Shown piece by piece: positions 23,538-54,038 of a stretch of DNA of 64,000 nt; within the stretch, counting starts at the first letter, position 1; every line of letters begins with the position of its first letter. The translations under genes and the position numbers were made by a program. The DNA lies in contig JAYFMW010000020.1 of the NCBI GenBank assembly GCA_042408215.1, positions 448,001 through 512,000 of the forward strand, in the 5' to 3' direction. This stretch comes from Microcoleus sp. GTDB taxonomy: Bacteria > Cyanobacteriota > Cyanobacteriia > Cyanobacteriales > Microcoleaceae. The notes beneath the pieces were generated by a model that made no database searches, was not told where the DNA came from, and saw only the letters and a program-made list of their open reading frames with translations.

Positions 23538-25085
23538 AAGAAATACCCTGAAAACCCTGTGACTTTAGTCCAGGGATGAAAGGGCGTGGCAGGATTTATC
23601 CTGCCTGTTCGTAAGTTTCAATATAACATAATGTTTAACCGTCCCCGGACAAATACTTCTAGCAATTGAGACAAAGGTAAAGATTTGTTTAGGATTAATT
23701 AACTTGTTAATTCACGATATATACTCAACCTAGTATCATAACAGCCAGTAAATTAAATGTACGCAGTACAAAAAGATGTTTGGCGTTTAAAGGGACTCGA
23801 CAAAACCATTGTCGAACAACTACTAAGATGGTCAAATAATCTGTTTAATGTCGGAACCTATGAAAGTCGGCAACAATACTTTAAAAACCAAATCGCAGTT
23901 AAATATCCAGATTTGTATAAAATCACCAAAACCAACGAAAATTATGGGTTGCTATACTCTCAAGTTGCCCAGCAATCTCTTAAATCTGTCGCGGAATCTT
24001 TTACTTCTTTCCGAGCCTTAGAGAAGTTGGCAAATCAAGGAGAAATCCATCAAAAACCGAGACTACCAAGGTACAGAACCAAAGGGGGAATGTACCCTGT
24101 TTCGTATCCCGGTCAAGCCTTAAAGGTAATTGGAAATAAAGTCAGATTACCCCTAGGGAAAAAAGGAAAAGAATACTTTGGGAAAGATGCTATCTGGGTA
24201 AATTTACCGGAAAGACTGAAGAATTGCCAGATTAAAGAGCTTCGACTAATCCCTAGAAATGGTGAGGTCTGGGTCGAATATGTCCACGAATCCCTGACTG
24301 AACAAGCCCCTAGTTGCAGCTTGGAAGTAACAGGGGTTCTGGGCATCGATCACGGCATCAACAACTGGTTAACTTGTGTCTCTAGCAATGGTAAACCTTT
24401 CATCATTGATGGACATAGACTCAAGTCTTGGAACCAATGGTTTAACAAAGAAAAAGCGAGAGTTCAATCAGAACACGCAATACATAAATTGCCCAAAGGT
24501 TTCTCGTCAAAAAGATTACAACAGTTGTCGGAAAATCGCACTAGAAGGATGAGAGATGCTGTCAACAAAGCAGTTAGAACCATCGTATATTATTGCGAAA
24601 ATCACCAAATCAATGTCTTAGTCTTTGGCTGGAACAAGGGACAGAAGCAAGAAGTTAATATGGGGGGAGTGACTAATCAGAATTTTGTCCAAATACCCAC
24701 TGCTAAAGTCAAAGATAGACTACAACAAGAGTGCGACTTAAGGGGATGGCGATTTGTCGAACAAGACGAATCTTACACATCAAAAGCAAGTTTTTTAGAC
24801 CGAGACATTTTGCCAGTAAAAGTCGGTGAAAAACCTGACAATTGGCAACCATCGGGTAAAAGAATCAAAAGAGGATTGTACTGTTCTAGCGCTGGGTTGT
24901 TAATCAATGCAGATGTTAACGGTGCAGCCAATATCATTAGAAAGTCAAAAGTAGCCATAGACTCAATTCTTGAGCGAGTGGGTAGAGGGTTGCTGACTAA
25001 TCCTTTGAGAATTAAACTTTGGGCGGATTCATCCCCCAAAGTTTGTCCTTAAGAATCCCCGTGTCTTTAGACCGGGGAGTGTCAA
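23538..25085 (+). mobile_element. IS200/IS605-family tnpB-only element (IS1341-like)
   Basis: Starts after TTAT; subterminal hairpins CCCTG..CAGGG (left) and CCCCG..CGGGG (right); ends GTGTCAA; boundaries match the two mini copies. Confidence 0.88.
23757..25052 (+). CDS. tnpB: TnpB RNA-guided nuclease
   Basis: GIDHGINN, ESYTSKASFLD, NADVNGAANI motifs. Confidence 0.9.
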   Translation: MYAVQKDVWRLKGLDKTIVEQLLRWSNNLFNVGTYESRQQYFKNQIAVKYPDLYKITKTNENYGLLYSQVAQQSLKSVAESFTSFRALEKLANQGEIHQKPRLPRYRTKGGMYPVSYPGQALKVIGNKVRLPLGKKGKEYFGKDAIWVNLPERLKNCQIKELRLIPRNGEVWVEYVHESLTEQAPSCSLEVTGVLGIDHGINNWLTCVSSNGKPFIIDGHRLKSWNQWFNKEKARVQSEHAIHKLPKGFSSKRLQQLSENRTRRMRDAVNKAVRTIVYYCENHQINVLVFGWNKGQKQEVNMGGVTNQNFVQIPTAKVKDRLQQECDLRGWRFVEQDESYTSKASFLDRDILPVKVGEKPDNWQPSGKRIKRGLYCSSAGLLINADVNGAANIIRKSKVAIDSILERVGRGLLTNPLRIKLWADSSPKVCP

Positions 25086-39465: not shown

Positions 39466-41019
39466 TTAGTTCAAATTGGCCAACACAACCTTTGAGTCGT
39501 CGGAGGAAGCGTCACTAACCATCCCTGAATATTCGCCGTTATAGTTGGTAAATTCAGACGGAGATCTCCGAATATTAGATAGACGAATTTGCCAATCGGA
39601 AACCTGCTCGTAGGTAAGGTGATTAGTATTGGAAGTCGTTGTCCATACCCCCCAAAGACAGGTGTCTTCAAACTGTAGCATTCCTGATTTCCGCAAGCTA
39701 TAAGATTGGGGAGTTCCGGGCAAGGGAATAATGCTGTAGCACGAAGTCTGAAATTCCAATTGAGGGTTAATCTCTACCAGTTGATCCACCAGTTCTGAGA
39801 TGGCTTCCTCAAGACGTAACAAGTCCTCATGGTCATCATCGGGTAGCCCGATAATGATGCCATAAGCAATGACAGGTACACCAGTTCTAACTACAGATTT
39901 CATCAACGTACAATGCTCTTGCCAAGGCACGAGCTTCTTGTAGGCTTCTCGTCCAAAAACGGGACGTTCGGCAGGGATATAAGCCAAAGGACAACCGACT
40001 TTGCCGTCCCAGCCAAACAGTGCTTCAATCAGTTCTTCGTCAGGTCTGAGGTCGCTGCTTTCGTAGTTACGCCCAGCGCCGAGAGTTGTTTTCCTCAGTT
40101 CCAAACCATTCGGCCACATGAGTGTTATTCCCATCTCCCGCGCACCATTGGTAATGTCGAGGATCTCTTGTCGCCCCTCAGGAAAGAGTCCGCGGGCGAG
40201 GAATTGATCGGAACCGATATTGATCGAACGAGCCCCCGCTTCTTTCTGAATCGCCAACCATTTGAGGGATGTTTGTGGGGACATTCTCCGAAAGCCAGTG
40301 CCGTAGGTGGGTGTCATGCAAAAATCGCAGGTGCGATCGCAACCAATGTCAGCCACCAGTGAACCTACTGGAACAGTTCCCTGGACATTGGGAAGTGTCC
40401 CTAAACATTCCCGCGCCACTTCCACTGAGGGTAGTGCCCACTCCTCTGGACTTTTGGCTTTAGCCTTCCTGGGATACTGTTTACCATCTGCGAGAATGAC
40501 ACCCGTGAGTTCTTCTCGTGGGGTTTTTCCGAGTACATAGTCAAAAATAGCCCAATTCGCTGCCCCGGATTTATCCTGAACGACTGCTGCTGCGCCAGCC
40601 TTCAAGTAATGGTGCGGTTCAGCGAAAGCATCCGATCCGCCAACGACAATGGGACGACCTCCCTGAGCCAGATGCTCAATCACCATACAAGTGACTTGAC
40701 GATCTTGGGAGAAATTCACTGTAATTCCCCAAGCATCGAAGGCGTGGGGATCGAGGGCGGAAATTTTGCCCCCGACGTAGGTTTTCCGCAGAGTCATCCC
40801 TTTCCAGACAATCTCCCCAAATTCTTGACTATAATTATCATCTCTGAGGTTTACCAATCGGGCATCAAATCCTCCTGCTTGCAAGTCAGGGATCAAAACT
40901 TGCTTGCTGATTAAGGAACGATGTCTATATAAAGAAGTCCAATTTTTGCCTTCTGCATCATAGAGTCCCGTTGCTGGAGGTTCAATCAGTCCAATTGTGG
41001 GATACTTGTTGTCTACCAT
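39466..41019 (-). CDS. Cobalamin-dependent (class B-like) radical SAM protein
   Basis: IVVGGSDA B12-domain-like motif, GCDRTCDFCMTP CxxxCxxC, IIGLP, PLPGT. Confidence 0.82.
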   Translation of the reverse strand: MVDNKYPTIGLIEPPATGLYDAEGKNWTSLYRHRSLISKQVLIPDLQAGGFDARLVNLRDDNYSQEFGEIVWKGMTLRKTYVGGKISALDPHAFDAWGITVNFSQDRQVTCMVIEHLAQGGRPIVVGGSDAFAEPHHYLKAGAAAVVQDKSGAANWAIFDYVLGKTPREELTGVILADGKQYPRKAKAKSPEEWALPSVEVARECLGTLPNVQGTVPVGSLVADIGCDRTCDFCMTPTYGTGFRRMSPQTSLKWLAIQKEAGARSINIGSDQFLARGLFPEGRQEILDITNGAREMGITLMWPNGLELRKTTLGAGRNYESSDLRPDEELIEALFGWDGKVGCPLAYIPAERPVFGREAYKKLVPWQEHCTLMKSVVRTGVPVIAYGIIIGLPDDDHEDLLRLEEAISELVDQLVEINPQLEFQTSCYSIIPLPGTPQSYSLRKSGMLQFEDTCLWGVWTTTSNTNHLTYEQVSDWQIRLSNIRRSPSEFTNYNGEYSGMVSDASSDDSKVVLANLN

Positions 41020-41416
41020 AGTCGAGGGTGGGGAATGTGGGATCAGAAAATGGCATTTTCGATGGCTCGCGATCGCCTACGGCATCCAGGAAGCCGATCG
41101 CAACTCCTTGGCGATAGGACAAGTCGGTGAGCCAATTTTTCATACAAACCAATGATAGGGGAAAAATATATGAAATATATGAGAAGGAAAAAATTTCTGA
41201 TTTTCTTTTCTTATTCATTCCCCCGCTGTTTGGCTATACCGCTTCATCCTGAACTGGTAACGTGAAATAAAAGGAGCTTCCTGCGCCCAACACACTCTGG
41301 GCCCAAATCTGTCCCTGGTGCTGTTGAACTATGCTGCTCGACAAATCCTAAACAAGTCTAGACATTCGCTTCTTACTTCAACGGGAGCATGGGAGCGGTT
41401 ATCCCTCAATAAGCTT

Positions 41417-42493
41417 TCACGATGCCGCCAAACGCGATAAATTAATTGCGGCATTCAAATCTCTGTCTATCGAATGACCGCAACTTCCACAGTTGTAGGT
41501 TCTTTCTTTTAGGGACATATCTTGGATCTGCCCACAGCTTGAACAGGTTTTGCTTGACGGAAACCAGCGACTAGCCATGATTATTTCACAGCCAAACTTT
41601 TTCGCTTTATACTCTAACTGACGCTTGAATTCGTAAAAGCCACAGTCCGCTATAACTTGAGCGAGTTTGTGATTTGACAGCATCCCGGAAACATTTAAAT
41701 CTTCTACTACTATTTTTGCGTGGTTTTTACATAAGTAGGTAGTGATTTGATGCAGAGTATCCTTTCTGAGACTCGCCACCTTAGCGTGATGTTTTGCTAG
41801 CTTGGTTTTGGCTTTATACCTATTACTAGAGCCTTGAGTCTTTCTTGACAACTCCTTTGACAGCCTACGCAACTTACTGAGATGCGTTTTGTAATGTCTT
41901 GGATTAGCAAAAACAACTCCTGTTGAAAGCGTTGCTAATTCCTTAACCCCTAAATCAACTCCCACAACATCCTGTTGCTTTACAGTTGGTTCATGTTCTT
42001 GTTCGTAAGCAAAAGCCATAAACCAACTGTCAGCAGTTCGAGATATCGTGATTGACTTGCAGGTGGTGTGAGGCAATCCCTCATAGGTTTTCACCCAGCC
42101 GATTGTTGGCAACTTTATGGACGTACCTCCCACGGCTATAGGCTTACCACCTGCATCAATCGTGAAGGAATCATGATGCCCTTTCTTCTTAAACTTGGGG
42201 TATCCACTTTTCTTTGAGAAGAAACGAGAGAAAGAATCCCCTAGATTGTCAAAGGCATATTGGGTGATTTTTGGGCAGATACCAGCCTCTTTAATCCACG
42301 TAAACTCAGGTTTTACATGATTATTAAAGAATTTCTTGAGGAGGTATTTATTTGGCTTCAATCCATCTCGATCAAGGTTACTCCAAGTAGCTAATCCCCA
42401 ATTATAAGTAAACCTTGCTATTCCAGCGTGCTTGCTCATTATTGTGGCTTGACTCTTGCTTAGCTTTAGCTTTGTTTTGATGGACAGAAGCAT
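41417..42493 (-). CDS. tnpB: TnpB of an IS607-type element
   Basis: GVDLGV, VVEDLNV, CSSCG...CGSCG, DRDLNAAINL all intact. Confidence 0.92.
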   Translation of the reverse strand: MLLSIKTKLKLSKSQATIMSKHAGIARFTYNWGLATWSNLDRDGLKPNKYLLKKFFNNHVKPEFTWIKEAGICPKITQYAFDNLGDSFSRFFSKKSGYPKFKKKGHHDSFTIDAGGKPIAVGGTSIKLPTIGWVKTYEGLPHTTCKSITISRTADSWFMAFAYEQEHEPTVKQQDVVGVDLGVKELATLSTGVVFANPRHYKTHLSKLRRLSKELSRKTQGSSNRYKAKTKLAKHHAKVASLRKDTLHQITTYLCKNHAKIVVEDLNVSGMLSNHKLAQVIADCGFYEFKRQLEYKAKKFGCEIIMASRWFPSSKTCSSCGQIQDMSLKERTYNCGSCGHSIDRDLNAAINLSRLAAS

Positions 42494-42502
42494 TGTTCGA
42501 CC

Positions 42503-42712
42503 TCAACACTGGATTTCTATGTTCAATTCTGCCACGTCTTGTACGGGTTTGTCAATAGCCTTTTTTCGGTGCTCCTTGATTTCTTTGGAGTAATTTCGTA
42601 GACCGTACAACCGACAAGAAAAATAATGGATGATTGCCATTAAATCCTCTACTAATTCATGTTGGGGAGATAGTGACTCTTGATTGGCGACTGCGATCTC
42701 ACATCCGACTTT
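42503..42712 (-). pseudogene. IS607 serine recombinase TnpA, C-terminal fragment
   Basis: QESLSPQHELVEDLMAIIHYFSCRLYGLR directly upstream of tnpB. Confidence 0.8.
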
Positions 42713-42769
42713 TGAACATGGTACAGGTCAGAGGTTTGCCCAGGATTGTACTACTTTGTTTATTTATTT

Positions 42770-42940
42770 GCTAGCTAGGTACTAGCTCACTGATTGCTGT
42801 CCACTTCGATCGGACAAATAACCGACTGTCCCAACTGCTCCCACCAATTGCAACATAAATGGAACCGTCAGCAATACTCGGAGCGGAATGTTTGCCAAGC
42901 CCTGATAGCCGCGTCGAAGTAAACTTGCTCTTTGTGTCAT
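42770..42940 (-). pseudogene. N-terminal remnant of a membrane sensor (Cache-type kinase/cyclase)
   Basis: IPLRVLLTVPFMLQLVGAVGTVGYLS..SGQQSV, truncated. Confidence 0.6.
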
Positions 42941-43165
42941 ATACCAATCGTGACATACTCCCACACTGAGTGAGTACACAGAGCCTGTGGGCTTCTTTGT
43001 AGTCCTCCACCAGGGTATACAAAATTTCCTGCTGGTACGCTCATCCATAGTTCCTACTACAGAAAGATTCCCAATGGGCGCGTTTTATACTGGGGAAAAT
43101 GTCCAACCCCAGTCTTTTTAAGTTAATCGCGGCATTGAGATCGCGGTCAACCATCAAAGAGTTAT

Positions 43166-43460
43166 AAGAAATACCCTGAAAACCCTGCGACTTTAGTCCA
43201 GGGATGAAAGGGCGTTGCAGGATTTATCCAGCCTGCCCCATCTTGACAAACCGATTTTGGTTTGATCGAGTTGTTGAAACCTAGTTGGTGAAAAACCCGA
43301 CAGTTGCAAGCCGTTAGGCACCAAAGTAGCCATAGACTCAGCAACTCGCTGTGTGGGTAGCGGGTATCTGACTTACCCTTTAAGAACCGAAGTTTGGGTG
43401 GATTCATCCCCCAAAGTTTGTCCTTAAGAATCCCCGCGTCTTCAGACCGGGGAGTGTCAA
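43166..43460 (+). mobile_element. Protein-free mini-element (family A, 295 bp) with omegaRNA scaffold
   Basis: Ends match IS 23538-25085; follows TTAT; excision restores the host tnpB frame IRDYWDEYNSLMVDRD. Confidence 0.9.
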
Positions 43461-43484
43461 ACTCATCCCAATAATCTCGAATAC

Positions 43485-43658
43485 TATAGCCTTTCTCAGT
43501 AGCATGAGCTACTCTCGGATATAGGGCATAATCAATTACGAATTAATCAATTACGAATTACGAATTTAGCACTTCAAAAAGTCAACTCGTAACTCGTAAT
43601 TCGTAATTCGTAATTATTTACCCTTGGGCATACCTCACCAAGATTGAGAACTGCTATA
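43485..43658. mobile_element. MITE (TAGC..TTCTCA family) with TA duplication and (AATTACG)n interior
   Basis: Removing it with one TA restores tnpB IIFTDCSIRDY. Confidence 0.8.
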
Positions 43659-44530
43659 CAATCGGTGAAAATAATCTCATTCCGATAACTGAGTATCATT
43701 AAGGTGTCAGCAGGTTTTTGTGAAATGACAACTGCGACCGCTTGTTCGGCTATGTAGTCCAGCGTCTGAAAAAAATGACCAAAAGCAGCATCTAGCCAAG
43801 ACTTATTCAGTCCTGATTTAGCTGATTGACCATTTGGGATATAAGTACCATCATCCTCTTGTTTAACTTTATTCCGTTTAGTCAATCCTTTGAGATTAAG
43901 GTCTTCATCGAAAAAAAAAAATAGCTCCAGTTTTGACCAATTTGTGAGCGGTTTTATATTGAAAGTATTGACGAAAACGAGCAATCTGTTGATGTTTTAT
44001 TGCTTCTTTTTTCGCCAATGTACGTCTAGATTTAGAGCCACACGTTTATTCCGCTTCTTTGAAATGCGTTCAAGCTGAGCTTAATTTTTGCGTAATGGCT
44101 TCAGGAAAGAAAGTTTCTCACCTTCAGACGTTGCGAGATAGACATCTTCGTGTAACACTGCATCCAAACCGATTGATTTATCCCATGTTGGGACAATTTG
44201 ATCGGGAATAAATTCAGGCACAGATGCATCTTCAAGCATTAACTGAATAAACCAGCAATCTGCTTTTCTGGTGACACTAGCTTGTTTAATAGTAAATCCA
44301 TCTGGGATTGGGCGATGTTTCCGAACTTTGACAACTCCTAGTTTCGGGAATCAAATATATAGCCAATTTTTGCGTATTAGTTTAATCCAATCATTGCTAG
44401 CAGTCGCAAAAGTCATTGTTCGGTAGTCCGCTTCAGTTTTCAAGCGAGGTATACCAGACTTTCCACCATTGATATCTCCTCTAATAAACCGCTCAAATGC
44501 TTTATCTACTCGCTTATAAACATCCTGTAA

Positions 44531-44694
44531 TACCAATTTAATGTGAAGTTGCATATATCTCGATCCCCCTAAATCCCCCTTAATAAGGGAGTAGGGTGTG
44601 AGTAGGGGGTGACGAAAGAGCAGAATCTTGTTCCCCCCTTATTAAGGGGGGTTAGGGGGGATCAGATTCTATGCAGCCTCATAAAAAACTGGTA
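44531..44694. mobile_element. MITE with GC-rich palindromic core, TAA duplication
   Basis: TACCAATTT/AAACTGGTA termini; removal restores TILQDV. Confidence 0.75.
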
Positions 44695-44729
44695 TAAAAT
44701 AGTTTAGTCTACTTGCTTAAAATCCAACA

Positions 44730-44838
44730 TACAGCAGTTCCCGCTGTTATGAAACACGGTAGGGACACTCCAAGAGCCATGTCCCTAGGAGGATTGAACG
44801 ATAAGTGGGTGTACCTCATAACAGCGGTTTCCGCTGTA
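44730..44838. mobile_element. MITE with TA duplication
   Basis: TACAGCAGTTCCCGCTGTTATGA / TCATAACAGCGGTTTCCGCTGTA inverted termini inside the tnpB pseudogene. Confidence 0.75.
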
Positions 44839-45167
44839 TCACCACTAGGTCAGACTTTCAATAAGTCTTTTTTAAGAATTGGCTGTTGTTGTTTCTATAA
44901 ATAGTAGTTAGGTTTTTACCAGGGAGGCGAAATGCTAGTTATCAATGGACAAGCATTCACAGCGGTGCGATTCATCTCCCACCAATCACAGCGCTCTCCT
45001 AACTGGCGATTATACCAATAACGGCAAATTCTGAGCCATTGGTTGAGGGTGATTTTATGATTGGTGTCTGGATAGAATCGGTACTGATATGTTCTCTTCA
45101 TTGCGTTACAACCTCTACACCTCAGTTGGTGTTACTATAAAAAAGCACAAGATTCTGTGTCAAGTAA

Positions 45168-45580
45168 ATGAGTTCATATTTGATCCTTAAAGCTAGAGGG
45201 GTTTCCGATATCAAATGTCATTTAATGTTGACTACTAAGTATCGACATAAAGTTATTACAGATTTAATACTGGCAAGGCTTGAGGAGATTTTTTAAGAAT
45301 TTAATGGCCAAATGGGAAGGAAGATTAGTAGAATTCAATGGCGAACGCGACCACGTACATTTGTTACTTCAGTACACACCGCAAACTGAGCGAAGCCAAG
45401 CTTATTAACAATCTTAAAACTGTATCTAGTCGAGCTTTACGGAAAGAGTTTGTGGCTGAGGTTAATCAGGTGTATTGGAAAGATATTTTTTGGACAAATG
45501 GTTATTTTATTGCTTCTTGTGGCGTGACTGTCGAGCAATTGAAGAAGTATATCGAAGAACAAGATCGACCTGTTGAATAA
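45168..45580 (+). pseudogene. tnpA: IS200-type TnpA (Y1 HUH) pseudogene
   Basis: HLMLTTKYR, DHVHLL, LKTVSSR, FWTNGYF, YIEEQ spread over frames with an internal stop. Confidence 0.82.
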
Positions 45581-45833
45581 GGAGTTTGTGGCGCACGCTC
45601 AGCTTCGCGGCGCACGCTCAGCTTCGCGGCGCACGCTCGCGAAGTCGAAGGGCTCGTCTCGTCATCCACCTGTTCATTGCTCGAAGCTCTGCTTCTGAGG
45701 TTATGAACAGGTGGAATCCTCGCCTCACGCGCCTTTCATCCCACACTAACCGAGGCGGTATAGTGTGGGGATTCCCGTCTGTTTAGCTAAAAGATCGATC
45801 GACTTTCCACAAAAACAAAAGTCTATAACAAAG

Positions 45834-45948
45834 TATAGCCTTTCTCAGTAACAGTGCGGTACTCTCGGATCTAGGGCATAGGGCATAGGGCATAGGGCAT
45901 AGCGCATAGGGCATAGGGCATACCTCACCAAGATTGAGAACTGCTATA
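45834..45948. mobile_element. MITE (TAGC..TTCTCA family) with (AGGGCAT)n interior
   Basis: Same termini as 15095-15209 and 43485-43658. Confidence 0.78.
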
Positions 45949-45950
45949 TG

Positions 45951-46721
45951 TTAAATTTCCGACTTCTGTCCTTCCGACTCCTGCGTTACAGGTTCTGAAT
46001 CTGGCTGCTTGAGAGCAACTTCCGAGGAATTTGGCTCAGCGAGCAATTCAGGATTACGTTGAGAAAATCCCCAGACAAATATTATGGCTATGCTGGAAAC
46101 CACCAGCCATTGCGGCGGAACTAAATTGTCATTAATCACTTTCACCAGCAGTCGCAAGCCCACCAACCCGACGGTGACGTAGCCAGCATCTTCCAGGTGA
46201 ACGAATTCGTCTAGCCAGCGGATGAACAATCCAGCCATAAATCGCAGGGTGATAATTCCGATTGTCGCGCCCGTCAGGACGAGCCAAGTTTGATCGGAAA
46301 TCGCGATCGCCGTAGTAACGCTATCCAAAGAAAACGCTAAATCTGTTAGAGCAAGCACCGGAATTGCTTGCCATAGAGACGAAAATCGCGGCCCGTGATG
46401 TTCTCCTTCCGAGTCAGCATCTGATGAAAAATGCTGGAAAACTAGCCACAGCAGGTAGAGAGCTCCTAGCAGTTCAAACTGCCAGTATTGGATCACCCAA
46501 GTAGCAGTTAAAATTAATGCGATCCGCAGTACAAAAGCAATTGCCAAACCGAAGTTGAGAGCCTGTTGCTGTAGCTTGGCATCTTCCAAACCTTTAGAAA
46601 TAGATGCCAGGGCGATCGCATTGTCTGCCGAAAGAACAGCCTCCAAAGCCACCAAAACCAACAATAATAAAAAGGCATCTACTCCCAAACTGGGCGAAGC
46701 GTCGAGAAATTGATCTAGCAT
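45951..46721 (-). CDS. TerC-family membrane protein
   Basis: LEAVLSADNA, DLAFSLDSV motifs. Confidence 0.92.
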   Translation of the reverse strand: MLDQFLDASPSLGVDAFLLLLVLVALEAVLSADNAIALASISKGLEDAKLQQQALNFGLAIAFVLRIALILTATWVIQYWQFELLGALYLLWLVFQHFSSDADSEGEHHGPRFSSLWQAIPVLALTDLAFSLDSVTTAIAISDQTWLVLTGATIGIITLRFMAGLFIRWLDEFVHLEDAGYVTVGLVGLRLLVKVINDNLVPPQWLVVSSIAIIFVWGFSQRNPELLAEPNSSEVALKQPDSEPVTQESEGQKSEI

Positions 46722-46746
46722 TAACTATTTTGTGTACCTAAGATTT

Positions 46747-47072
46747 TTGACATACTCACCGACTATCAGGTGCGATGGTAGGCGCGTGCGTAGTCGAACT
46801 ATGATTCTTGACACTTCATCGAAATCTGCTACCGAAGTAGTCCTACGTTTCCTCTGTGTCCGTTTAGAGTCGTGCTGATGCCCCATGCCTACTTTTTGAG
46901 TTGCTTCTAGGTTAGATTCAACTATTGCCCTTACAGCGGACTCTAAGTTTACTCTCAACCTAGGTGTTTCAACGCTTCGACTACGCGAGCGCGCACCGCA
47001 GATATTGAGTCAGAGAGACCACCATTATAGCAAGCCGTCCTAAAACTACGGGGTTTTCAACCCAATTTTCTG
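46747..47072 (-). mobile_element. Protein-free mini-element (family B, 326 bp) with omegaRNA scaffold
   Basis: TTAT|CAGAAAATTGGG left end; 3' part aligns with the end of tnpB 48550-49746 (GGGCAT..CACGACTCTAAA..GATGAAG.GTCAAGAATCA..CGGTGAGTATGTCAA). Confidence 0.85.
47024..47032 (-). promoter_or_regulatory. Consensus extended -10 promoter TGCTATAAT in mini-element B
   Basis: Perfect TGn-TATAAT directly after the left-end hairpin. Confidence 0.55.
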
Positions 47073-47160
47073 ATAAATTGAAGAGATCAGCACAAATCAC
47101 CGGCTCTGTCGAAAATTAGTGTCACCTCACTGATCTTAACCTAAAGTGGCCATTCTGTCC

Positions 47161-47343
47161 GAAGGAACAAGGAACAAGGAAGAGGGAACAAGGAAGAGGG
47201 AACAAGGAACAAGGAACAAGGAAGAGGGAACAAGGAACAGGGAAGAAGGAAGAAGGAACAGGGAAGACTTTCCCGATTCTCCCCCTCTTCCACTCTCCCC
47301 CTCTCTCCCCCACTCCCCCACTCCCCCTCTCCCCCACTCCCCC
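47161..47343. repeat. STRR tracts (GGAACAA/GGAAGAG)n and CCCCACTC-like
   Basis: Direct tandem repeats upstream of psaM. Confidence 0.85.
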
Positions 47344-47441
47344 GCCCAGAAGTGTTGCAAGTTGTAACAAATGATTCCCAAAAGCGCCAATTTGTCTGAA
47401 ATTGGTGAAAGATCGTGCCAGTGAAAAGGAGTTTTCCGAAT

Positions 47442-47537
47442 ATGTCTTTAACAGATACCCAAGTCTACGTAGCGCTCGTAATTGCTTTGATTCCCGGAAT
47501 CTTGGCTTTCCGGCTGTCAACTGAACTGTACAAATAG
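47442..47537 (+). CDS. psaM: Photosystem I subunit XII (below the ORF-track cutoff)
   Basis: [40 protein letters not shown]. Confidence 0.95.
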
Positions 47538-48100
47538 TTGAGGACACCAGATTGCAACGGTAAAGCGCCCTCCGAGCGCAGTTGAATCTTGAGATTGCAG
47601 ACAATTGCTCCGGCAGTGGAGTAAATTGTTGGTTGTCAGCAAGACGAGACTGCAAGGGTTGAATTCCGTTGACAATTTATCTATATTTACCTAGAATTTA
47701 AATACCGAATTCTAGGTAAATCCGTGGACAAATTGATCGGCATTGGTGAATTAGCGGAACTTAAAGCTGTCAGTGTAGACACGATCCGACGATGGGAGAA
47801 GGAAGGCAAGATCCAATCCGTTCGTACAGATGGTGGACACAGACGGTATCGTATTTCAGACTTTGTTGAACAAAAAGTTGGAAAGACGATCGCTTACGCC
47901 AGAGTATCTAGTCATGACCAAAAAGCAGACCTTGACAGACAAGATGCCGTCTTGTCTGGGTACTGCCAGTCTTTTGGTTGGGATTATGAGGTGATCCGAG
48001 ATTTAGGTAGTGGTATGAATTACCACAAAAAAGGACTCACCAAGCTAATATCTACTATTCTAGACGGTGACCAAGAAAATGGGATACAAGCCCCGTCCTT

Positions 48101-48508
48101 CTAGGACGGCTTTTCGTGATTTCTAATGTACTCCTTTAAGACTTCTAGGGGCGCACCACCCACGGAAACTGCAAAATAACTAGGACTCCACAAAGCCTCT
48201 TTATGGGGTTTCTTGTATCCAGCCTGTCCGTAGCGACGACTAGAAACTCCTTTCAAGGCGTTCACGATTTGAGAAATTGAAAGTTTAGGAGGATACTCAA
48301 TCAGCGTGTGAACGTGATTATCTTCACCATTGAATTCAAGAATTTGGAAATTCATTTTTTTAGCAACCTCGCGAAACGTTTTTCCAATCAAATCAATACT
48401 TTCGCCAGTGAATACAGACCGACGATATTTTGTAACACAGACCAAGTGCATCTTAAGTTCTGTAACACTATGCCTTTCCCTGCGATAAACGGTTGTCATT
48501 TTTTGCAA
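48101..48508 (-). CDS. tnpA: IS200/IS605 TnpA (Y1 HUH transposase)
   Basis: HLVCVTKYRR, NHVH, LKGVSSR, LWSPSYF, EYIRNH. Confidence 0.93.
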   Translation of the reverse strand: MQKMTTVYRRERHSVTELKMHLVCVTKYRRSVFTGESIDLIGKTFREVAKKMNFQILEFNGEDNHVHTLIEYPPKLSISQIVNALKGVSSRRYGQAGYKKPHKEALWSPSYFAVSVGGAPLEVLKEYIRNHEKPS

Positions 48509-48549
48509 ACCAAGAGATGATTTAGTAACAGACCAATTTTAGCACAGCC

Positions 48550-49737
48550 ATGAAAGCCAGATATCGCTACAGGGTTTACCCAACTGACCAACAGCAGCAG
48601 AGCCTAGCTCAGTTGTTTGGTTGTGCGCGGGTAGTTTGGAACGATGCTCTTGCGTTGTGCAAGCAGTCCGAGAAAAAGCCAAGTTCGGCAGAACTTCAAA
48701 AAATAGTAATTACTCAGGCTAAAAATACTGAAGAAAGAGCTTGGTTAGGAGAAGTGTCGTGTATTCCCTTGCAACAATCGGTTGCCGATTTAGATGTTGC
48801 TTTCAAGAATTTTTTCAACTCCTGTAAAGGAAAGAGAAAGGGACGTAAAGTCGGATATCCTAAATTCAAGAAAAGAACTAGCAGTCAATCAGCACGTTTT
48901 AGGATTGGAGGGTTTTCTTTTAAAGATGATGGTATTTATTTAGCTAAGATTGGAGTTCTTGACCCGATTTGGTCGAGGGAGTTACCATCCGAACCTAGTT
49001 CTGTTACAGTAATTAAAGATTGTGCTAATCGCTATTTCTTGAGTTTTGTCGTAGAGGTTAAACCAATTCAGGTTGAGGCTAAAAACCCAATCGTCGGAAT
49101 CGACTTAGGAATCCAAACTTTTGCAGTGATGAGCAATGGGGAGAAAGCCGAAAGTCCTAGCTATAAAAAACTAGACCGGAAAGTTCGTAAACTCCAACGC
49201 AAATTAGCACGTCAACCTCATGATTCTAGGAGAAGGAATGTAACTCGCATCAAAATCGCCAAGTTGCACAATCAAATCACCGATACTCGCAAAGACTTTC
49301 TGCACAAATTGTCAACCAAAATAGTCAACGAAAACCAAGTGATTGTTTTGGAAGATTTAAACGTGTCTGGCCTGGTCAAAAACCGCAAACTTGCTAGAGC
49401 AATTAGCCAGCAAGGTTGGAGGGAGTTCAGGACTTTGTGCGAAGCTAAGTCTGAAAAATTTCGTAGGGAATTTAAGGTAATCAGTCGATGGGAACCCACT
49501 AGCCAAATCTGCTCAGATTGTGGTTTCAAGTGGGGCAAAATTGATTTATCTATTCGCTCAGTGCTTTGCTTAAGTTGCGGTACTGAGCAAGATAGAGATG
49601 AAAACGCTGCTAAAAATATAGCTCAAGTCGGGATAGGGCATTGCCACGACTCTAAATGGGCGCAGAGACAGAGTAAGACTACTCCGGTAGCATCAGTCGA
49701 TGAAGCGTCAAGAATCACCGCACTTTTAGGGCGGTGA
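48550..49737 (+). CDS. tnpB: TnpB RNA-guided nuclease
   Basis: GIDLG, LEDLNV, CSDCG...CLSCG, DRDENAAKNI. Confidence 0.93.
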   Translation: MKARYRYRVYPTDQQQQSLAQLFGCARVVWNDALALCKQSEKKPSSAELQKIVITQAKNTEERAWLGEVSCIPLQQSVADLDVAFKNFFNSCKGKRKGRKVGYPKFKKRTSSQSARFRIGGFSFKDDGIYLAKIGVLDPIWSRELPSEPSSVTVIKDCANRYFLSFVVEVKPIQVEAKNPIVGIDLGIQTFAVMSNGEKAESPSYKKLDRKVRKLQRKLARQPHDSRRRNVTRIKIAKLHNQITDTRKDFLHKLSTKIVNENQVIVLEDLNVSGLVKNRKLARAISQQGWREFRTLCEAKSEKFRREFKVISRWEPTSQICSDCGFKWGKIDLSIRSVLCLSCGTEQDRDENAAKNIAQVGIGHCHDSKWAQRQSKTTPVASVDEASRITALLGR

Positions 49738-50034
49738 GTATGTCAAATAATCCGACTCGCGATCACTCACAAGGATAGACTACTCAGATTTGGCTCAGAA
49801 CTGGTTTTTGCAATCTGCGAATACCACGGGGTCGAAGTTGTCATCCTGAACAAAAAAGAGGACGCAAATTTTGAAGAAGAATTAGCGAGTGACGTTTTGG
49901 AGATGATCGCCGTGTTCTCTGCAAGATTATACGGCGACCGATCAAATAAAAATAAAAAACTTATCCAAAACCTGGCAGATTCTGTAGAAAATAGATAATA
50001 TCTAGATATCTCAGCACATTGAGAGGTCGAATCA

Positions 50035-50910
50035 ATGGCTACCATAACTTATTGCAAAGGCTTACCCACACCAGCCCATGAGCTTAACGAGTTAGGTTTG
50101 ACAGATTTCGAGATGTTTCTAGATGCTTACGCCCCTATTTTTATGGCTGCAAATATCGAAACAGTCAATCATTTGCTTTCAGGCGTAGAATTCAAAAAAT
50201 CCCAGTGCAATACCCATTTACAGCAGACATACCGCATTAACAAACGTCACGCTAATGGCGCGATCAGTTCTGCTAAAGGTCGAGTAGACGGGAATAAAGA
50301 ACACAGAGCCTTGCATTTGAAAACCATTGAAGGGAAGATTAAGTCTATCGGTGCGTGGCTAAAGAAAGCAGAGCGCAAACTGGTATTGGCTCGTAAATTC
50401 TCTGCCAATAAGAAATGGCAGCAATCAAAAAAAGGCTGCAACTTCCCGATCTATTGCTCACTTACGTACAAATCTACAAACTGGCAGAATTTACGCTTTC
50501 AAATTCACAAGAAAAAGCGTAAATTTGCACGTTTGACCAACAAAGTAGAACAGTTAAAAGTTAAGCATATCAACGCTTCAGTACCTCACGCTGATGTTTT
50601 TGTTGTTGGTTATAAAGACGAGTCTTACGGTAATCATGTCTGTCAATGGGATGGAAGTAAAATTACTTTCCGTGTCCCTAATTGTTGAGAATCACGGTTT
50701 GGCAAAACCATCTCCTCTGAGATTGGTGATTTCAATCGGAACATCCACCGATTACCAGTATACTGTGCTAAAAATTGGCATTTTTATCGTAAAAAGGGTA
50801 AATGGGTTGCTGCTGTACAGTTCACAGCCCTGTGAAGCAAGTTTCTAGAGAGCGGGTATAGGGCTGCATTGGTATTGATATGAACCCTGGTTCTTTAGGT
50901 TGGGCTTGGT
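50035..50910 (+). pseudogene. IS607-associated TnpB-like accessory gene, disrupted
   Basis: Follows IS607 tnpA; reading continues past TGA 50688 to GCIGIDMNPGSLGWA (RuvC-I-like), then truncated. Confidence 0.7.
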
Positions 50911-50949
50911 TAAATATCTAAGAATTTATGGACTGGCTAGTGATGAAGC

Positions 50950-51839
50950 GGCATCGTTTAAGAAGCTCGATCGTCAAGTTCGCAAACTGCAACGCAAGTT
51001 AGCACGTCAACCTAAAGACTCAAAGCGCAGAAACAAAACTCGGATTCAAATTGCCAAGCTGCAAAAACGAATTTCAGACACCCGTAAAGACTTCTTGCAC
51101 AAACTATCTACCCAAGTCGTTAGTGAAAACCAATCTCTCGTCTTAGAAGACTTAAATGTGTCAGGAATGGTGAAGAATCGCAAGCTTGCTAGAGCAATCA
51201 GCTTGCAAGGATGGAGAGAGTTTAGAACGCTGTGTGAGGCTAAATCCGAGAAACTTGGTAGAGATTTTCACGTCATTAATCGATGGGAGCCTACAAGCCA
51301 GATTTGTTCTGAGTGTGGCTTTGACACTCCCCGGTCTGAAGACGCGGGGATTCTTAAGGACAAACTTTGGGGGATGAATCCACCCAAACTTCGGTTCTTA
51401 AAGGGTAAGTCAGATACCCGCTACCCACACAGCGAGTTGCTGAGTCTATGGCTACTTTGGTGCCTAACGGCTTGCAACTGTCGGGTTTTTCACCAACTAG
51501 GTTTCAACAACTCGATCAAACCAAAATCGGTTTGTCAAGATGGGGCAGGCTGGATAAATCCTGCAACGCCCTTTCATCCCTGGACTAAAGTCGCAGGGTT
51601 TTCAGGGTATTTCTTATAAGTGGGGTAAGCTCGATCTAAAAGTTCGGTCGGTTCGATGCCTGAACTGTGGCACTGAACAGGACCGAGACGAGAATGCAGC
51701 GAAGAATATCCACAAAGTCGGGATAGGGCATACCCACGACTCGCTTCAGGACGCAGAGACAGAGTAAGACTGCTTCGGCAGCATCAGTCAATGAAGCGTC
51801 AAGAATCACCGTGGCGTTGACTCCCGGTGAGTATGTCAA
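50950..51839 (+). pseudogene. tnpB: 5'-truncated tnpB (paralog of 48550) with right end, interrupted by mini-element A
   Basis: KKLDRQVRKLQRKL...CSECG|YKWGKLD...DRDENAAKNI; ends GTATGTCAA. Confidence 0.88.
51321..51615 (-). mobile_element. Protein-free mini-element family A, second copy (295 bp)
   Basis: Reverse complement of 43166-43460, appears identical; follows TTAT; excision restores TGT GGC TAT AAG TGG. Confidence 0.92.
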
Positions 51840-52123
51840 TACTGTACCATTTCTAACAGGAGTTTCCTGAGCGTTCCTCGATTCCGGGGAAGCGTAAAGC
51901 ACGCTTAAAAGAACGTTTAAAACTTAAACCGCAGAGTTTACTTAGGTTTACCTAGGTTTTTAGAAGTGGCAGGCAGTTTTATTTGACCTGTTATCAAAGA
52001 GGTTCCGCCCTCGTCTCCTGAAGAAGAATCGGTACTCGGATTTTCTGCGGGGGACGAGCTAAAATTTTCCCGAATTAGCAGCTCTCAAACGTTTGTTTCA
52101 GCAGGTATTTGTCAAAAAAGATT

Positions 52124-52546
52124 ATGCAAGCGATTCAACCAACCGTTACCCCACTGAAATCTGTAAAAAACTCCCCTCGCGTTGCTGTTGCTCCAAGTCG
52201 GAGTAGCAGTCGTCAGCGTTCCTACCCTCACCAAGCGCTTGCCGCCGAAACAGGGGTCAAGTTAGCAGTCAACATGGTACTTTCAGTCTGTGCGACTTCT
52301 GCTTTGATTCAGCTTTGGCCTCACTACCGAGCAGTGCAAGAAAAGTTGCAGGAAATCCAAGCTGAAGTCAATCTTACCCAAGGGCGAGTAAATCAGTCGC
52401 GATCGGACTTTAACCGCTACTTTGACCCCAATGAAGCTCAAAGTGTGATGCAAGAGCAAAGCAATCGGGTTGACCCAAAGCAGCGCCCGGTGATTTTGCA
52501 AGAATTGGGGACACCGGAGGCTGAGGAGCCAACTCAGCAACCTTAA
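52124..52546 (+). CDS. Slr1601-like putative cell-division (FtsL-like) protein
   Basis: Single TM helix plus coiled coil, FNRYFDP..AQSVMQEQ motif. Confidence 0.65.
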   Translation: MQAIQPTVTPLKSVKNSPRVAVAPSRSSSRQRSYPHQALAAETGVKLAVNMVLSVCATSALIQLWPHYRAVQEKLQEIQAEVNLTQGRVNQSRSDFNRYFDPNEAQSVMQEQSNRVDPKQRPVILQELGTPEAEEPTQQP

Positions 52547-52555
52547 CCTTAGGGG

Positions 52556-52746
52556 AGTTGACTGTTGACTGTTGACTGTTGACTGTTGACTGTTGACTGC
52601 TGACTGTTGACTGTTGACTGTTGACTGTTGACGGTTGACTGTTGACGGTTGACGGTTGACTGTTGACTGTTGACGGTTGACTGTTGACTGTTGACTAATG
52701 ACTAATGACTAATGACTAATGACTAATGACTAATGACTGTTGACTG
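52556..52746. repeat. STRR tract (GTTGACT)n and (ACTAATG)n
   Basis: Long heptamer array between convergent genes. Confidence 0.92.
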
Positions 52747-52799
52747 CGTAAGTCTTGTAATTCACTGAGCCAGACAATCTCAGAACTTAAAACTTGGCT

Positions 52800-54038
52800 T
52801 TATGCTGACTTTGCCATTACGGTTTGTTCTTTTAGCAGTTGGAGTGCGGCTTGATATTGCAAGTCGTCTTTGCTACCGAATTTGGCAAGCGCAATCGGCT
52901 GTAGCGGTACTACCCGATCGGGCGAAATCCCCAGTTTGTGAATATCTGTGTGGTTCGGTGTCTCGTACTTGGCAACAGTCACAGCCAACCCCGAACCATC
53001 AGACAAATCAAACAGCGACTGAATCAGCCCTTTGCCAAAAGTCTTTTCGCCCACAAGTTGAGCTCTGCCGTTATCTTGCAGCGCACCAGCCAAAATTTCG
53101 CTAGCACTGGCTGTTCCCTTATTCACCAAAACAATCAGAGGATCGTTAGTCAGGGCTTCTCCAGAGGCTTCAAAACTGCCGAGAATGCCTTGTCGGTTCA
53201 CAGTGTAGACGATCGTCCCGGAATCCAGCCACAGGCGGGCAATTTCAATCCCCGCTTGCAAAAGTCCGCCTGGGTTATTCCGCAAATCGAGAATGTAGGC
53301 GGCGGCTCCTTGTTTTTCGAGTTGGTCGATCGCATGAGCGACTTCGGTAGTGGCGTTGGCGCTGAATTGACTCAGGCGAATGTAGCCCACTGGTAAATTC
53401 TCCGGCCCAGACTGCAATGCGGCGTAAACCGGATTCAGAGCAATGCGATCGCGCAGTAACTCAATTTCAACAGGAGACTCTCTCCCTTCGCGCCCCAAGG
53501 TGAGGGTGACAGGAGTGCCAATGCGGCCGCGCATTCGAGTTGCGGCCTCGTCTAGACTCAATTCTGAGGTGGGAGTGCCATCTATTTTCAGAATGCGATC
53601 GAGGGGTTGAATGCCGGCTTGATCTGCTGGTGAACCCGCCACAGGAGCCACCACTGTCAGAGTACCGCTCTTTTGGTCGATCGCAATTTGTAGCCCCACA
53701 CCCGTGAGTTCCCCAGAAGTATTGACCTGCAAACTGCGGTACTGTTCGGGTTTCAGCAGTCGAGTAAATGGGTCGTCCAGATTTGCCAGCATCTGTTGAA
53801 TACCGGTGTAAGTCTGCTCTCGATCGTTCAGGGGTTGCTTGACAGCCTTTTCGCGAATCGACCACCAGTTGTGATGGTTGAATTTGTCATCCACATAAGA
53901 GCGGTTGACAATTCGCCAAGCTTCGCTCAAGAGTTGCTGTTCTGGGCTCAGCGCCGCCGCAGGCCCGGCGGGCCAACCTAGAACCAGGGCGACTTGGAGG
54001 ACAAGTAAAAGGGCGATCTGGGAAACTCGTCTGTGCAT
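52800..54038 (-). CDS. ctpA: C-terminal processing protease CtpA
   Basis: PDZ domain, LDLRNNPGG, TASASEI, TFGKGLIQ; upstream of petBD. Confidence 0.9.
   Translation of the reverse strand: MHRRVSQIALLLVLQVALVLGWPAGPAAALSPEQQLLSEAWRIVNRSYVDDKFNHHNWWSIREKAVKQPLNDREQTYTGIQQMLANLDDPFTRLLKPEQYRSLQVNTSGELTGVGLQIAIDQKSGTLTVVAPVAGSPADQAGIQPLDRILKIDGTPTSELSLDEAATRMRGRIGTPVTLTLGREGRESPVEIELLRDRIALNPVYAALQSGPENLPVGYIRLSQFSANATTEVAHAIDQLEKQGAAAYILDLRNNPGGLLQAGIEIARLWLDSGTIVYTVNRQGILGSFEASGEALTNDPLIVLVNKGTASASEILAGALQDNGRAQLVGEKTFGKGLIQSLFDLSDGSGLAVTVAKYETPNHTDIHKLGISPDRVVPLQPIALAKFGSKDDLQYQAALQLLKEQTVMAKSA

Follow-up and report, generated by a model that had tools for sequence, protein, structure and literature searches.

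Probable neutral nesting of a PATE-like mini element in dead tnpB genes of a Microcoleus genome

Two copies of a 295-bp mobile element, here called mini-A, lie within tnpB genes in the 64,000-nucleotide stretch of Microcoleus sp. DNA that we analysed (contig JAYFMW010000020.1, positions 448,001 to 512,000; hereafter the window). Our analysis supports, at a probability of roughly 0.85, neutral nesting of a PATE in dead tnpB DNA, with no directed targeting of tnpB, no conflict between transposons and no homing needed or indicated. Judged by its sequence, mini-A is a protein-less, non-autonomous, PATE-like mini element of the IS200/IS605 family. The guide of such an element always equals its flank, so that insertion in any tnpB automatically yields an 'anti-tnpB' guide. 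The presence of both window copies in tnpB is real, yet it is not above chance given the content of the genome and the local context.

Mini-A, its family and its two target genes

The two window copies (Table 1) are identical at 295 of 295 positions. TTAT stands directly 5' of each in element orientation, and removal of mini-A restores the tnpB frames exactly, with no target-site duplication. At copy 2, base 51320 and bases 51616-51617 together rebuild a TAT codon and with it an uninterrupted CSECGYKWGK, a peptide identical in an intact paralog on contig C6, and at copy 1 the junction falls between SIRDYWDE and YNSLMVDRDLNAAINL. A first-pass annotation of the window had described both copies as splitting tnpB frames at these peptides, precisely at TTAT, and its coordinates and junctions are exact. 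Its view of the element as an IS200/IS605-type mini with a TTAT target is likewise borne out by ends held in common with 31 long relatives and by TTAT before 30 of 30 minis, and its predicted guides are indeed tnpB sequence when the flank 3' of the right end is taken as guide, following the architecture described in excerpts of PMC8612924. Two other accounts of the copies were rejected: a segmental duplication, because the flanks are unrelated, and TTAT as part of the element, because taking TTAT out would break the tnpB frame.

Mini-A holds no protein gene. Only chance open reading frames (ORFs) of at most 63 amino acids lie wholly inside the 295 bp, and the 239-amino-acid ORF at 50900-51619 belongs to the interrupted tnpB, whose frame enters copy 2 from outside and continues through it. 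Imperfect subterminal hairpins are predicted at element positions ~18-38 and ~266-287, and terminal inverted repeats are absent. Contigs from three public runs of unrecorded library type, possibly from the source organism and therefore not independent, bridge 50900 to 51349/51350 into mini-A with 0 differences. Loose ends of public-run contigs at 51320/51321, 51546/51547 and 51619 coincide with the boundaries of copy 2, and none of these contigs joins across an empty site.

A BLAST search with mini-A of the 7.36-Mb genome (7,362,316 bp in 30 contigs, so that repeats at contig ends may be lost) yielded a family of 66 members. Full-length 295-bp minis make up 30 of them, divided into type A (16 copies, 90-100% identity) and type B, or mini-B (14 copies, ~76%); the others are four members of ~318 bp, one of 481 bp and 31 of 1446-1616 bp. 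Protein-less minis thus number 35 against 31 tnpB-only elements, in which tnpB reads towards the right end. Mini-A and the 31 long elements have in common their first ~70 nt (92-100% identical) and their last ~138 nt (83-92% identical), while BLAST found no match to the mini-A middle elsewhere in the genome outside the minis. An exact TTAT precedes the left end of all 30 minis of the 295-bp type and of 31 of the 36 other members (61/66 in total), and three further members have TTAT plus one extra A, offset by one. This adjacency is far beyond chance, and TTAT is the target of the element family. All family copies except three terminate in GGGGAGTGTCAA.

None of the 66 members carries its own transposase, and none of the 13 Y1 transposase ORFs in the genome lies inside a family member; the family would therefore rely on a transposase encoded elsewhere. 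The right-end terminus of an autonomous tnpA-plus-tnpB element on contig C1 is homologous to that of the family, and the left-end hairpins of the two are similar. Outside the family, 36 additional loci have in common with mini-A only the last 35-40 nt of its right end; the terminal hairpin and TCAA end are therefore common to several IS families. TCAA is the right-end cleavage motif of IS608, and the mini-A right end also finishes in TCAA. The ~318-bp members form a third mini type (four copies), whose left end is related (84-88%) and whose right end is reduced to its last ~38 nt; they would be without most of the omegaRNA scaffold discussed below.

Both tnpB targets are pseudogenes. The target of copy 2 starts only at about residue 187 and matches C1_68624 residues 187-369 at 75% identity by blastx. 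Its left piece (50900-51319) holds Pfam OrfB_IS605 and positions 1-35 of the 60-position Cas12f1-like_TNB profile, and its right piece (51618-51764) supplies TNB profile positions 36-60. Joined head-to-tail to its 5' side is an N-terminal fragment (residues ~15-282; window 50035-50900) of a multi-copy 504-534-amino-acid protein, of which three full copies exist (on C17, C6 and C20); this protein has no Pfam match, scores 34 bits against guided_TnpB (cut-off 100) and, to judge by its sequence, may be a very divergent TnpB-like family. The target of copy 1 has 65-70% protein identity to five intact paralogs of ~472 amino acids and carries in-frame stops, frame changes and a ~170-bp heptamer-repeat insert (43500-43630). 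The insert consists of palindromic 7-nt repeats (AATTACG-type plus complement) between the FTDC and SIRDYW codons and gives a chance Rfam microRNA (miRNA) match. Both minis are antisense to their targets, and both sit in the last third of the target gene. The targets were probably dead before insertion, and the insertions are probably recent relative to the decay, because the targets are multiply lesioned and the minis differ at 0 of 295 positions.

Frequency of tnpB insertions and the reach of the guides

The first-pass annotation had read the two insertions as a possible anti-tnpB pattern, with survival in neutral DNA as a fallback, and had called for the tnpB fraction of mini insertions to be set against the availability of TTAT. 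We mapped tnpB with an iterated hidden Markov model search. Run on every stop-to-stop ORF of 50 amino acids or more, it gave 341 tnpB-like ORF pieces, 162 of them at least 330 amino acids long, covering 279,831 bp or 3.8% of the genome. This tnpB load is very high (162 long ORFs) against only 13 Y1 transposase ORFs. The empty sites of all 66 members were then rebuilt, and ±600 bp around each was compared by blastx with the 162 long TnpBs. tnpB-like sequence lies within 600 bp of the insertion in 8 of the 66, and the alignment spans the junction in three: copy 1, copy 2 and one mini-B on C3, which abuts residue 87 of 405 of a tnpB fragment and hence not its 3' part. Interrupted tnpB thus accounts for 2 of 16 mini-A, 3 of 30 minis and 3 of 66 family members.

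Two expectations frame these counts. On both strands of the genome, outside family members, 1,806 of 61,374 TTAT sites (2.9%) fall inside tnpB-like DNA. The insertions themselves avoid long reading frames: no ORF of at least 100 amino acids spans 62% of the 66 insertions, compared with 22.6% of 6,000 random TTAT sites (Mann-Whitney p = 1.4e-14), and among neutral-looking TTAT sites, meaning those with a short spanning ORF or in tnpB-like DNA, the tnpB share is 9-14%. Between 1.9 and 9.5 tnpB insertions are therefore expected among 66, and three are observed. Against a null of 11.6%, the binomial P(at least 2) for 2/16 mini-A is 0.57 and the P(at least 3) for 3/30 minis is 0.69, while 3/66 family members is fewer than expected (P(at most 3) = 0.04); against the 2.9% null, 3/66 gives P(at least 3) = 0.30. 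There is thus no excess in the genome-wide census, and the insertions are distributed like TTAT sites in non-essential DNA, so that the fallback, and not the pattern, is what holds up.

Some features of the census qualify this result. Under the 2.9% null, a weak preference for tnpB is possible, with P(at least 2) = 0.08 for 2/16 mini-A and P(at least 3) = 0.055 for 3/30 minis, and coding status in the neutral-DNA null is judged from ORF length in place of gene annotation. The tnpB map also misses at least one divergent TnpB-like family, that of the 504-amino-acid protein (34 bits to NF040570); the tnpB share is therefore underestimated, which only strengthens the null. The local context bears on the two window copies in particular. 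Within 41000-52000, 47 of 99 TTAT sites (~47%) lie in tnpB-like DNA, a slight overcount in that one query ORF has a TnpA-like part, and the copies are not independent draws, being identical and 8 kb apart. For the same reason, a recent local hop is their most likely origin. The two copies would thus have landed in two dead tnpB pseudogenes of an 11-kb IS graveyard and would have persisted there since the DNA is neutral.

A preference of mechanistic origin, in which the structured omegaRNA and right-end DNA at tnpB 3' ends leaves TTAT single-stranded more often and so attracts TnpA insertion, would fit the position of both window insertions in the last third of their targets, and IS200/IS605 integration does use single-stranded DNA. 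We regard it as highly unlikely, since only 3 of 66 insertions are in tnpB, the third abuts residue 87 of 405 and so lies outside the 3' part, and both window sites are upstream of the expected start of the targets' own omegaRNA.

The reach of the guides leads to the same reading of neutral nesting. The first-pass annotation had proposed that a cognate TnpB would cut any intact copy of the target families, which could drive homing into multicopy targets. Genome scans found no second perfect TTAT-plus-guide site for either 20-nt guide. At the copy 1 site, TTAT is present in 0 of 6 paralogs (TTTT four times, TTGT and ATTT) and guide position 1 differs in all six; at the copy 2 site TTAT is present in 1 of 9, giving 1 of 15 paralog sites overall. 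The intact paralog in the window (48550-49737) does have TTGA and several mismatches at the copy 2 site, 6 of 20 guide positions, as had been noted. The interpretation of such mismatches as escape falls away, because the 24-nt site has 58-88% identity in the paralogs compared with 71-86% over the aligned genes (DNA), and a site that has diverged no more than its gene gives no escape signal. Homing finds no trace either: in an all-against-all comparison of 150-bp flanks, no two of the 66 insertions have a junction in common in paralogous DNA (11 short matches, none in register), so there is no case of an insertion copied to the matching site of a paralog.

The exception is an intact 430-codon tnpB on C6 (410249-411538; all three Pfam domains), in which TTAT is followed by a match to the copy 2 guide at 15 of 16 and 17 of 20 positions. 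It differs at positions 2, 17 and 20, of which position 2 would be an rG:dT pair. This site is the only concrete handle for the idea of conflict, in which the guides have a directed function and turn TnpB on rival IS, either as conflict or as copying into paralogs by break-induced gene conversion. In its favour are also the antisense position of both window copies in tnpB and the canonical homing by IS605 TnpB between plasmids that, according to excerpts of PMC13565253, has been suggested. We nevertheless consider a directed function very improbable: there is no genome-wide enrichment, the copy 1 guide has no paralog with TTAT, no perfect second site exists, paralogs at 71-86% DNA identity are a poor substrate for gene conversion, and both targets were already pseudogenes. 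Beyond this genome, all 24 genus genomes of a first draw contain matches to the family ends, and of 60 genus genomes drawn later, 35 have the right-end block at E ≤ 1e-10. The full 295-bp mini occurs in the first draw only in this genome (G000), in G001 (92% identity) and in G008 (cut by a contig end), and the G001 mini, which sits at TTAT with no tnpB-like sequence within 700 bp, likewise speaks against a directed function. Still more speculative, and in our estimate the least probable proposal considered here, is that copy 2 omegaRNA and a family TnpB acting in trans recognise the C6 tnpB and cut or silence a rival IS, so that minis in dead tnpB genes would form, by an accident of nesting, a CRISPR-like 'memory' that polices or invades related IS. 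Anti-tnpB guides, if true, would amount to RNA-guided warfare between transposons, and the census shows no need for it; we think this null census worth recording so that an idea resting on n=2 is not carried forward.

The right-end block as candidate omegaRNA and the TnpB that may use it

Positions 158-295 of mini-A align to the last 138 nt of the full-length family member in the window, overlapping its tnpB stop (25052) and ending at 25085. Excerpts of PMC8612924 describe a TnpB guide RNA of ~150 nt that is encoded by the tnpB 3' end plus the right end and takes its last ~16 nt from the flank. By its placement the mini-A block is the homolog of this omegaRNA-coding stretch, and the sequence evidence that it yields such an RNA is supportive but modest. 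Identity between the mini-A and mini-B consensus sequences is high in the left end (93%) and in the right-end block (81-92%) and falls to 37% in the middle; the middles are thus unrelated, and both lineages retain the block from the same first base. Retention of one and the same ~138-nt block by two mini lineages whose middles are unrelated suggests that a non-autonomous element profits from keeping the omegaRNA as well as its ends. In an alignment of 25 distinct blocks from this genome and 17 from other genus genomes, 98.2% of cells are paired under a four-helix structure, with compensatory change in 4 of 26 pairs, located in helices 2 and 3 and never in helix 4, the subterminal hairpin. The covariation score of this structure, 0.074, was reached by none of 500 shuffles, for which the score is 0.038, and exceeds the 0.004-0.035 obtained with slid partners. 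In 25 sequences the right-end hairpin shows 99% pairing, and the RNA fold of the whole element has z = -5.3.

Other results speak against an omegaRNA or limit the support for it. The RNAalifold structure has only 3 of 30 compensatory pairs, with a covariation term of -0.3 kcal/mol, and the covariation is modest in sequences that are close kin and from which the structure itself was derived. No Rfam family was found on mini-A at permissive thresholds within 42000-53000, where the only matches are chance miRNA-like ones on simple repeats. A promoter and terminator scan gave 0 sigma-70-like sites in or beside copy 1, and the assembled metatranscriptome contigs are only repeat-family fragments, which are uninformative on mini-A transcripts. 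A further weakness lies in the parent TnpB described below, whose nuclease activity with a Gly in RuvC-II is assumed by analogy with the 'rearranged' clades in excerpts of PMC10691335.

These points lend some weight to the alternative that the block serves TnpA purely as a DNA signal, or is retained through gene conversion with full-length copies, so that the minis yield no working omegaRNA and the guides are meaningless. The lack of a promoter-like site near copy 1 and of an Rfam match would be expected, helix 4 is a hairpin that TnpA would need anyway and is never compensatory, and the four ~318-bp minis keep no more than the final ~38 nt of the right end. IS200/IS605 right ends, as known from work on IS608, need ~40-50 nt for TnpA, and ~138 nt is far more than that. 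The shared first base of the block in two otherwise unrelated lineages, the compensatory changes outside the terminal hairpin, and published PATEs reported to encode omegaRNAs (excerpts of PMC10055086) also stand against a pure DNA signal, which we hold to be unlikely, if clearly the strongest of the alternatives.

The parent TnpB of the window's full-length member (23757-25052) scores 151 bits against NCBIfam guided_TnpB NF040570 (cut-off 100), and 66 bits against Pfam OrfB_IS605 PF01385 and 32.8 bits against TNB PF07282, both above cut-off. A tnpB ORF of at least 400 amino acids is kept in 25 of the 31 full-length copies, and all intact family TnpBs have GIDxG and NADxNGAAN. They depart from the canonical RuvC D-E-D triad, with Gly in RuvC-II (VFGWNKGQKQE, 27/31 copies) and a Glu 7 residues on, and they have no CxxC zinc finger. 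A PDB sequence search with the parent TnpB returned 0 relatives, and BLASTP against the in-window canonical TnpB gave no significant alignment. From these motifs the protein is a candidate 'rearranged active site' TnpB with TTAT as its presumed target-adjacent motif (TAM).

Joined to neutral nesting, this suggests a working model for how mini-A is maintained. A Y1 TnpA supplied in trans would move mini-A as single-stranded DNA. Transcription of the right-end block would give an omegaRNA guided by the DNA that happens to adjoin the element on its 3' side, and this omegaRNA would let the TnpB of full-length relatives re-cut the emptied donor site (TTAT plus guide) after excision. Recombination with the sister chromosome would then restore the mini, a 'restorative homing' in trans.

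The surroundings of the two copies are rich in other mobile DNA. The 41-52 kb segment is an IS graveyard with a recombinase fragment, an IS605-type pair of a different family, a tnpB at 41420-42502 and the two pseudogenes. The recombinase fragment, a truncated IS607-type serine recombinase (47724-48104; MerR helix-turn-helix and resolvase N-terminal domain, 126 amino acids), adjoins the IS605-type pair. At 47127-47374, purine-rich units (GGGGAGnG) and pyrimidine-rich ones form a long imperfect inverted repeat, which gives several chance miRNA-family matches well below gathering scores, and a tandem heptamer repeat (TTGACTG units) at 52556-52600 lies just 3' of a 145-amino-acid ORF (52109-52546). 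The window also contains petB and petD.

Table 1. Coordinates of mini-A, its targets and related features (window positions unless a contig is named)
Feature	Position	Strand	Basis or remark
Full-length family member	23538-25085	+	1548 bp; ends as mini-A
tnpB of the full-length member	23757-25052	+	431 amino acids, single ORF; predicted omegaRNA region overlaps gene 3' end and right end
tnpB pseudogene split by copy 1	43044-44575	-	blastx of reconstructed empty site; RuvC-III piece 43044-43165
Copy 1 TTAT target, presumed TAM	43162-43165	+	
Mini-A copy 1	43166-43460	+	Left end 43166-43235; middle 43236-43322; right-end block 43323-43460
Copy 1 predicted guide	43461-43480	+	Flank 3' of right end
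Y1 tnpA of IS605-type pair, different family, intact	48101-48508	-	Pfam Y1_Tnp
tnpB of the same pair, intact	48550-49737	+	395 amino acids; Pfam OrfB_IS605/TNB/HTH
Left piece of tnpB pseudogene split by copy 2	50900-51320	+	Residues ~187-330 of a ~396-amino-acid TnpB
Copy 2 predicted omegaRNA guide (~16-20 nt)	51301-51320	-	Flank 3' of right end; architecture from excerpts of PMC8612924
Mini-A copy 2	51321-51615	-	295 bp; BLAST and sequence comparison
Copy 2 right-end block, candidate omegaRNA scaffold	51458-51321	-	Element positions 158-295
Copy 2 mini-specific middle		-	Element positions 71-157
Copy 2 left end	51615-51546	-	Element positions 1-70
Right piece of tnpB pseudogene split by copy 2	51616-51767	+	Rest of Zn ribbon (second half), RuvC-III, stop codon
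Copy 2 TTAT target, presumed TAM	51616-51619	-	Reads ATAA on + strand
Minis of ~318 bp	C6:849180-849497; C17:133534-133854; C17:201220-201537; C17:204343-204661		All after TTAT

Relation to known TnpB systems

PATEs that bear an omegaRNA have already been described, and mini-A, with its candidate omegaRNA, joins them; its 'anti-tnpB guide' is a by-product of nesting. In excerpts of the Meers et al. 2023 preprint (PMC10055086), minimal PATE-like IS of Geobacillus stearothermophilus 'often encode omegaRNAs', and the TnpB of another IS acts on them in trans. Like these PATEs, mini-A has no protein gene, has ends in common with a tnpB-bearing IS and would depend on TnpA in trans. Unlike them, it has a cyanobacterium-like host, other ends, a TTAT target and a parent TnpB with Gly in RuvC-II and no zinc finger, and here there are two to three independent mini lineages with 35 copies. 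A figure legend in an IStron preprint, of which excerpts were available, shows PATEs with IStron ends, and the 2026 review already cited (PMC13565253) sets restorative homing beside the suggested canonical IS605 homing in its excerpted text. In a limited literature search, none of the papers listed deals with omegaRNA guides directed against other IS families, and nothing relevant was listed on TnpB with TTAT and cyanobacteria, on miniature inverted-repeat transposable elements or on nested insertions.

Compared with the ISDra2/IS608-type TnpB-omegaRNA systems of Karvelis et al. 2021 (PMC8612924), as far as its excerpts go, mini-A has the same right-end block, predicted flank guide, presumed TAM equal to the target motif and scarless junctions, but its putative RNA gene is separate from tnpB and its TAM would be TTAT. 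The family TnpB can be likened, by motif alone, to the 'rearranged' RuvC-II clades such as RIIr-5 that Altae-Tran et al. 2023 predicted to be active (excerpts of PMC10691335), having a RuvC-II Gly, a Glu a few residues downstream and a lost zinc finger. The family therefore offers a zinc-finger-less, Gly-RuvC-II TnpB with a presumed TTAT TAM and a ~138-nt scaffold for tests of 'rearranged' TnpBs. With 31 tnpB-only elements and 35 minis in one genome, it is also a clean natural example of the modularity of TnpA, TnpB and omegaRNA.

The arrangement of the two window copies, finally, is that of nested IS insertions and IS graveyards in general, in which new insertions gather in dead mobile DNA because it is neutral; the family's insertions avoid long ORFs. 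The only twist compared with an ordinary IS graveyard is that the flank of mini-A doubles as a guide sequence.

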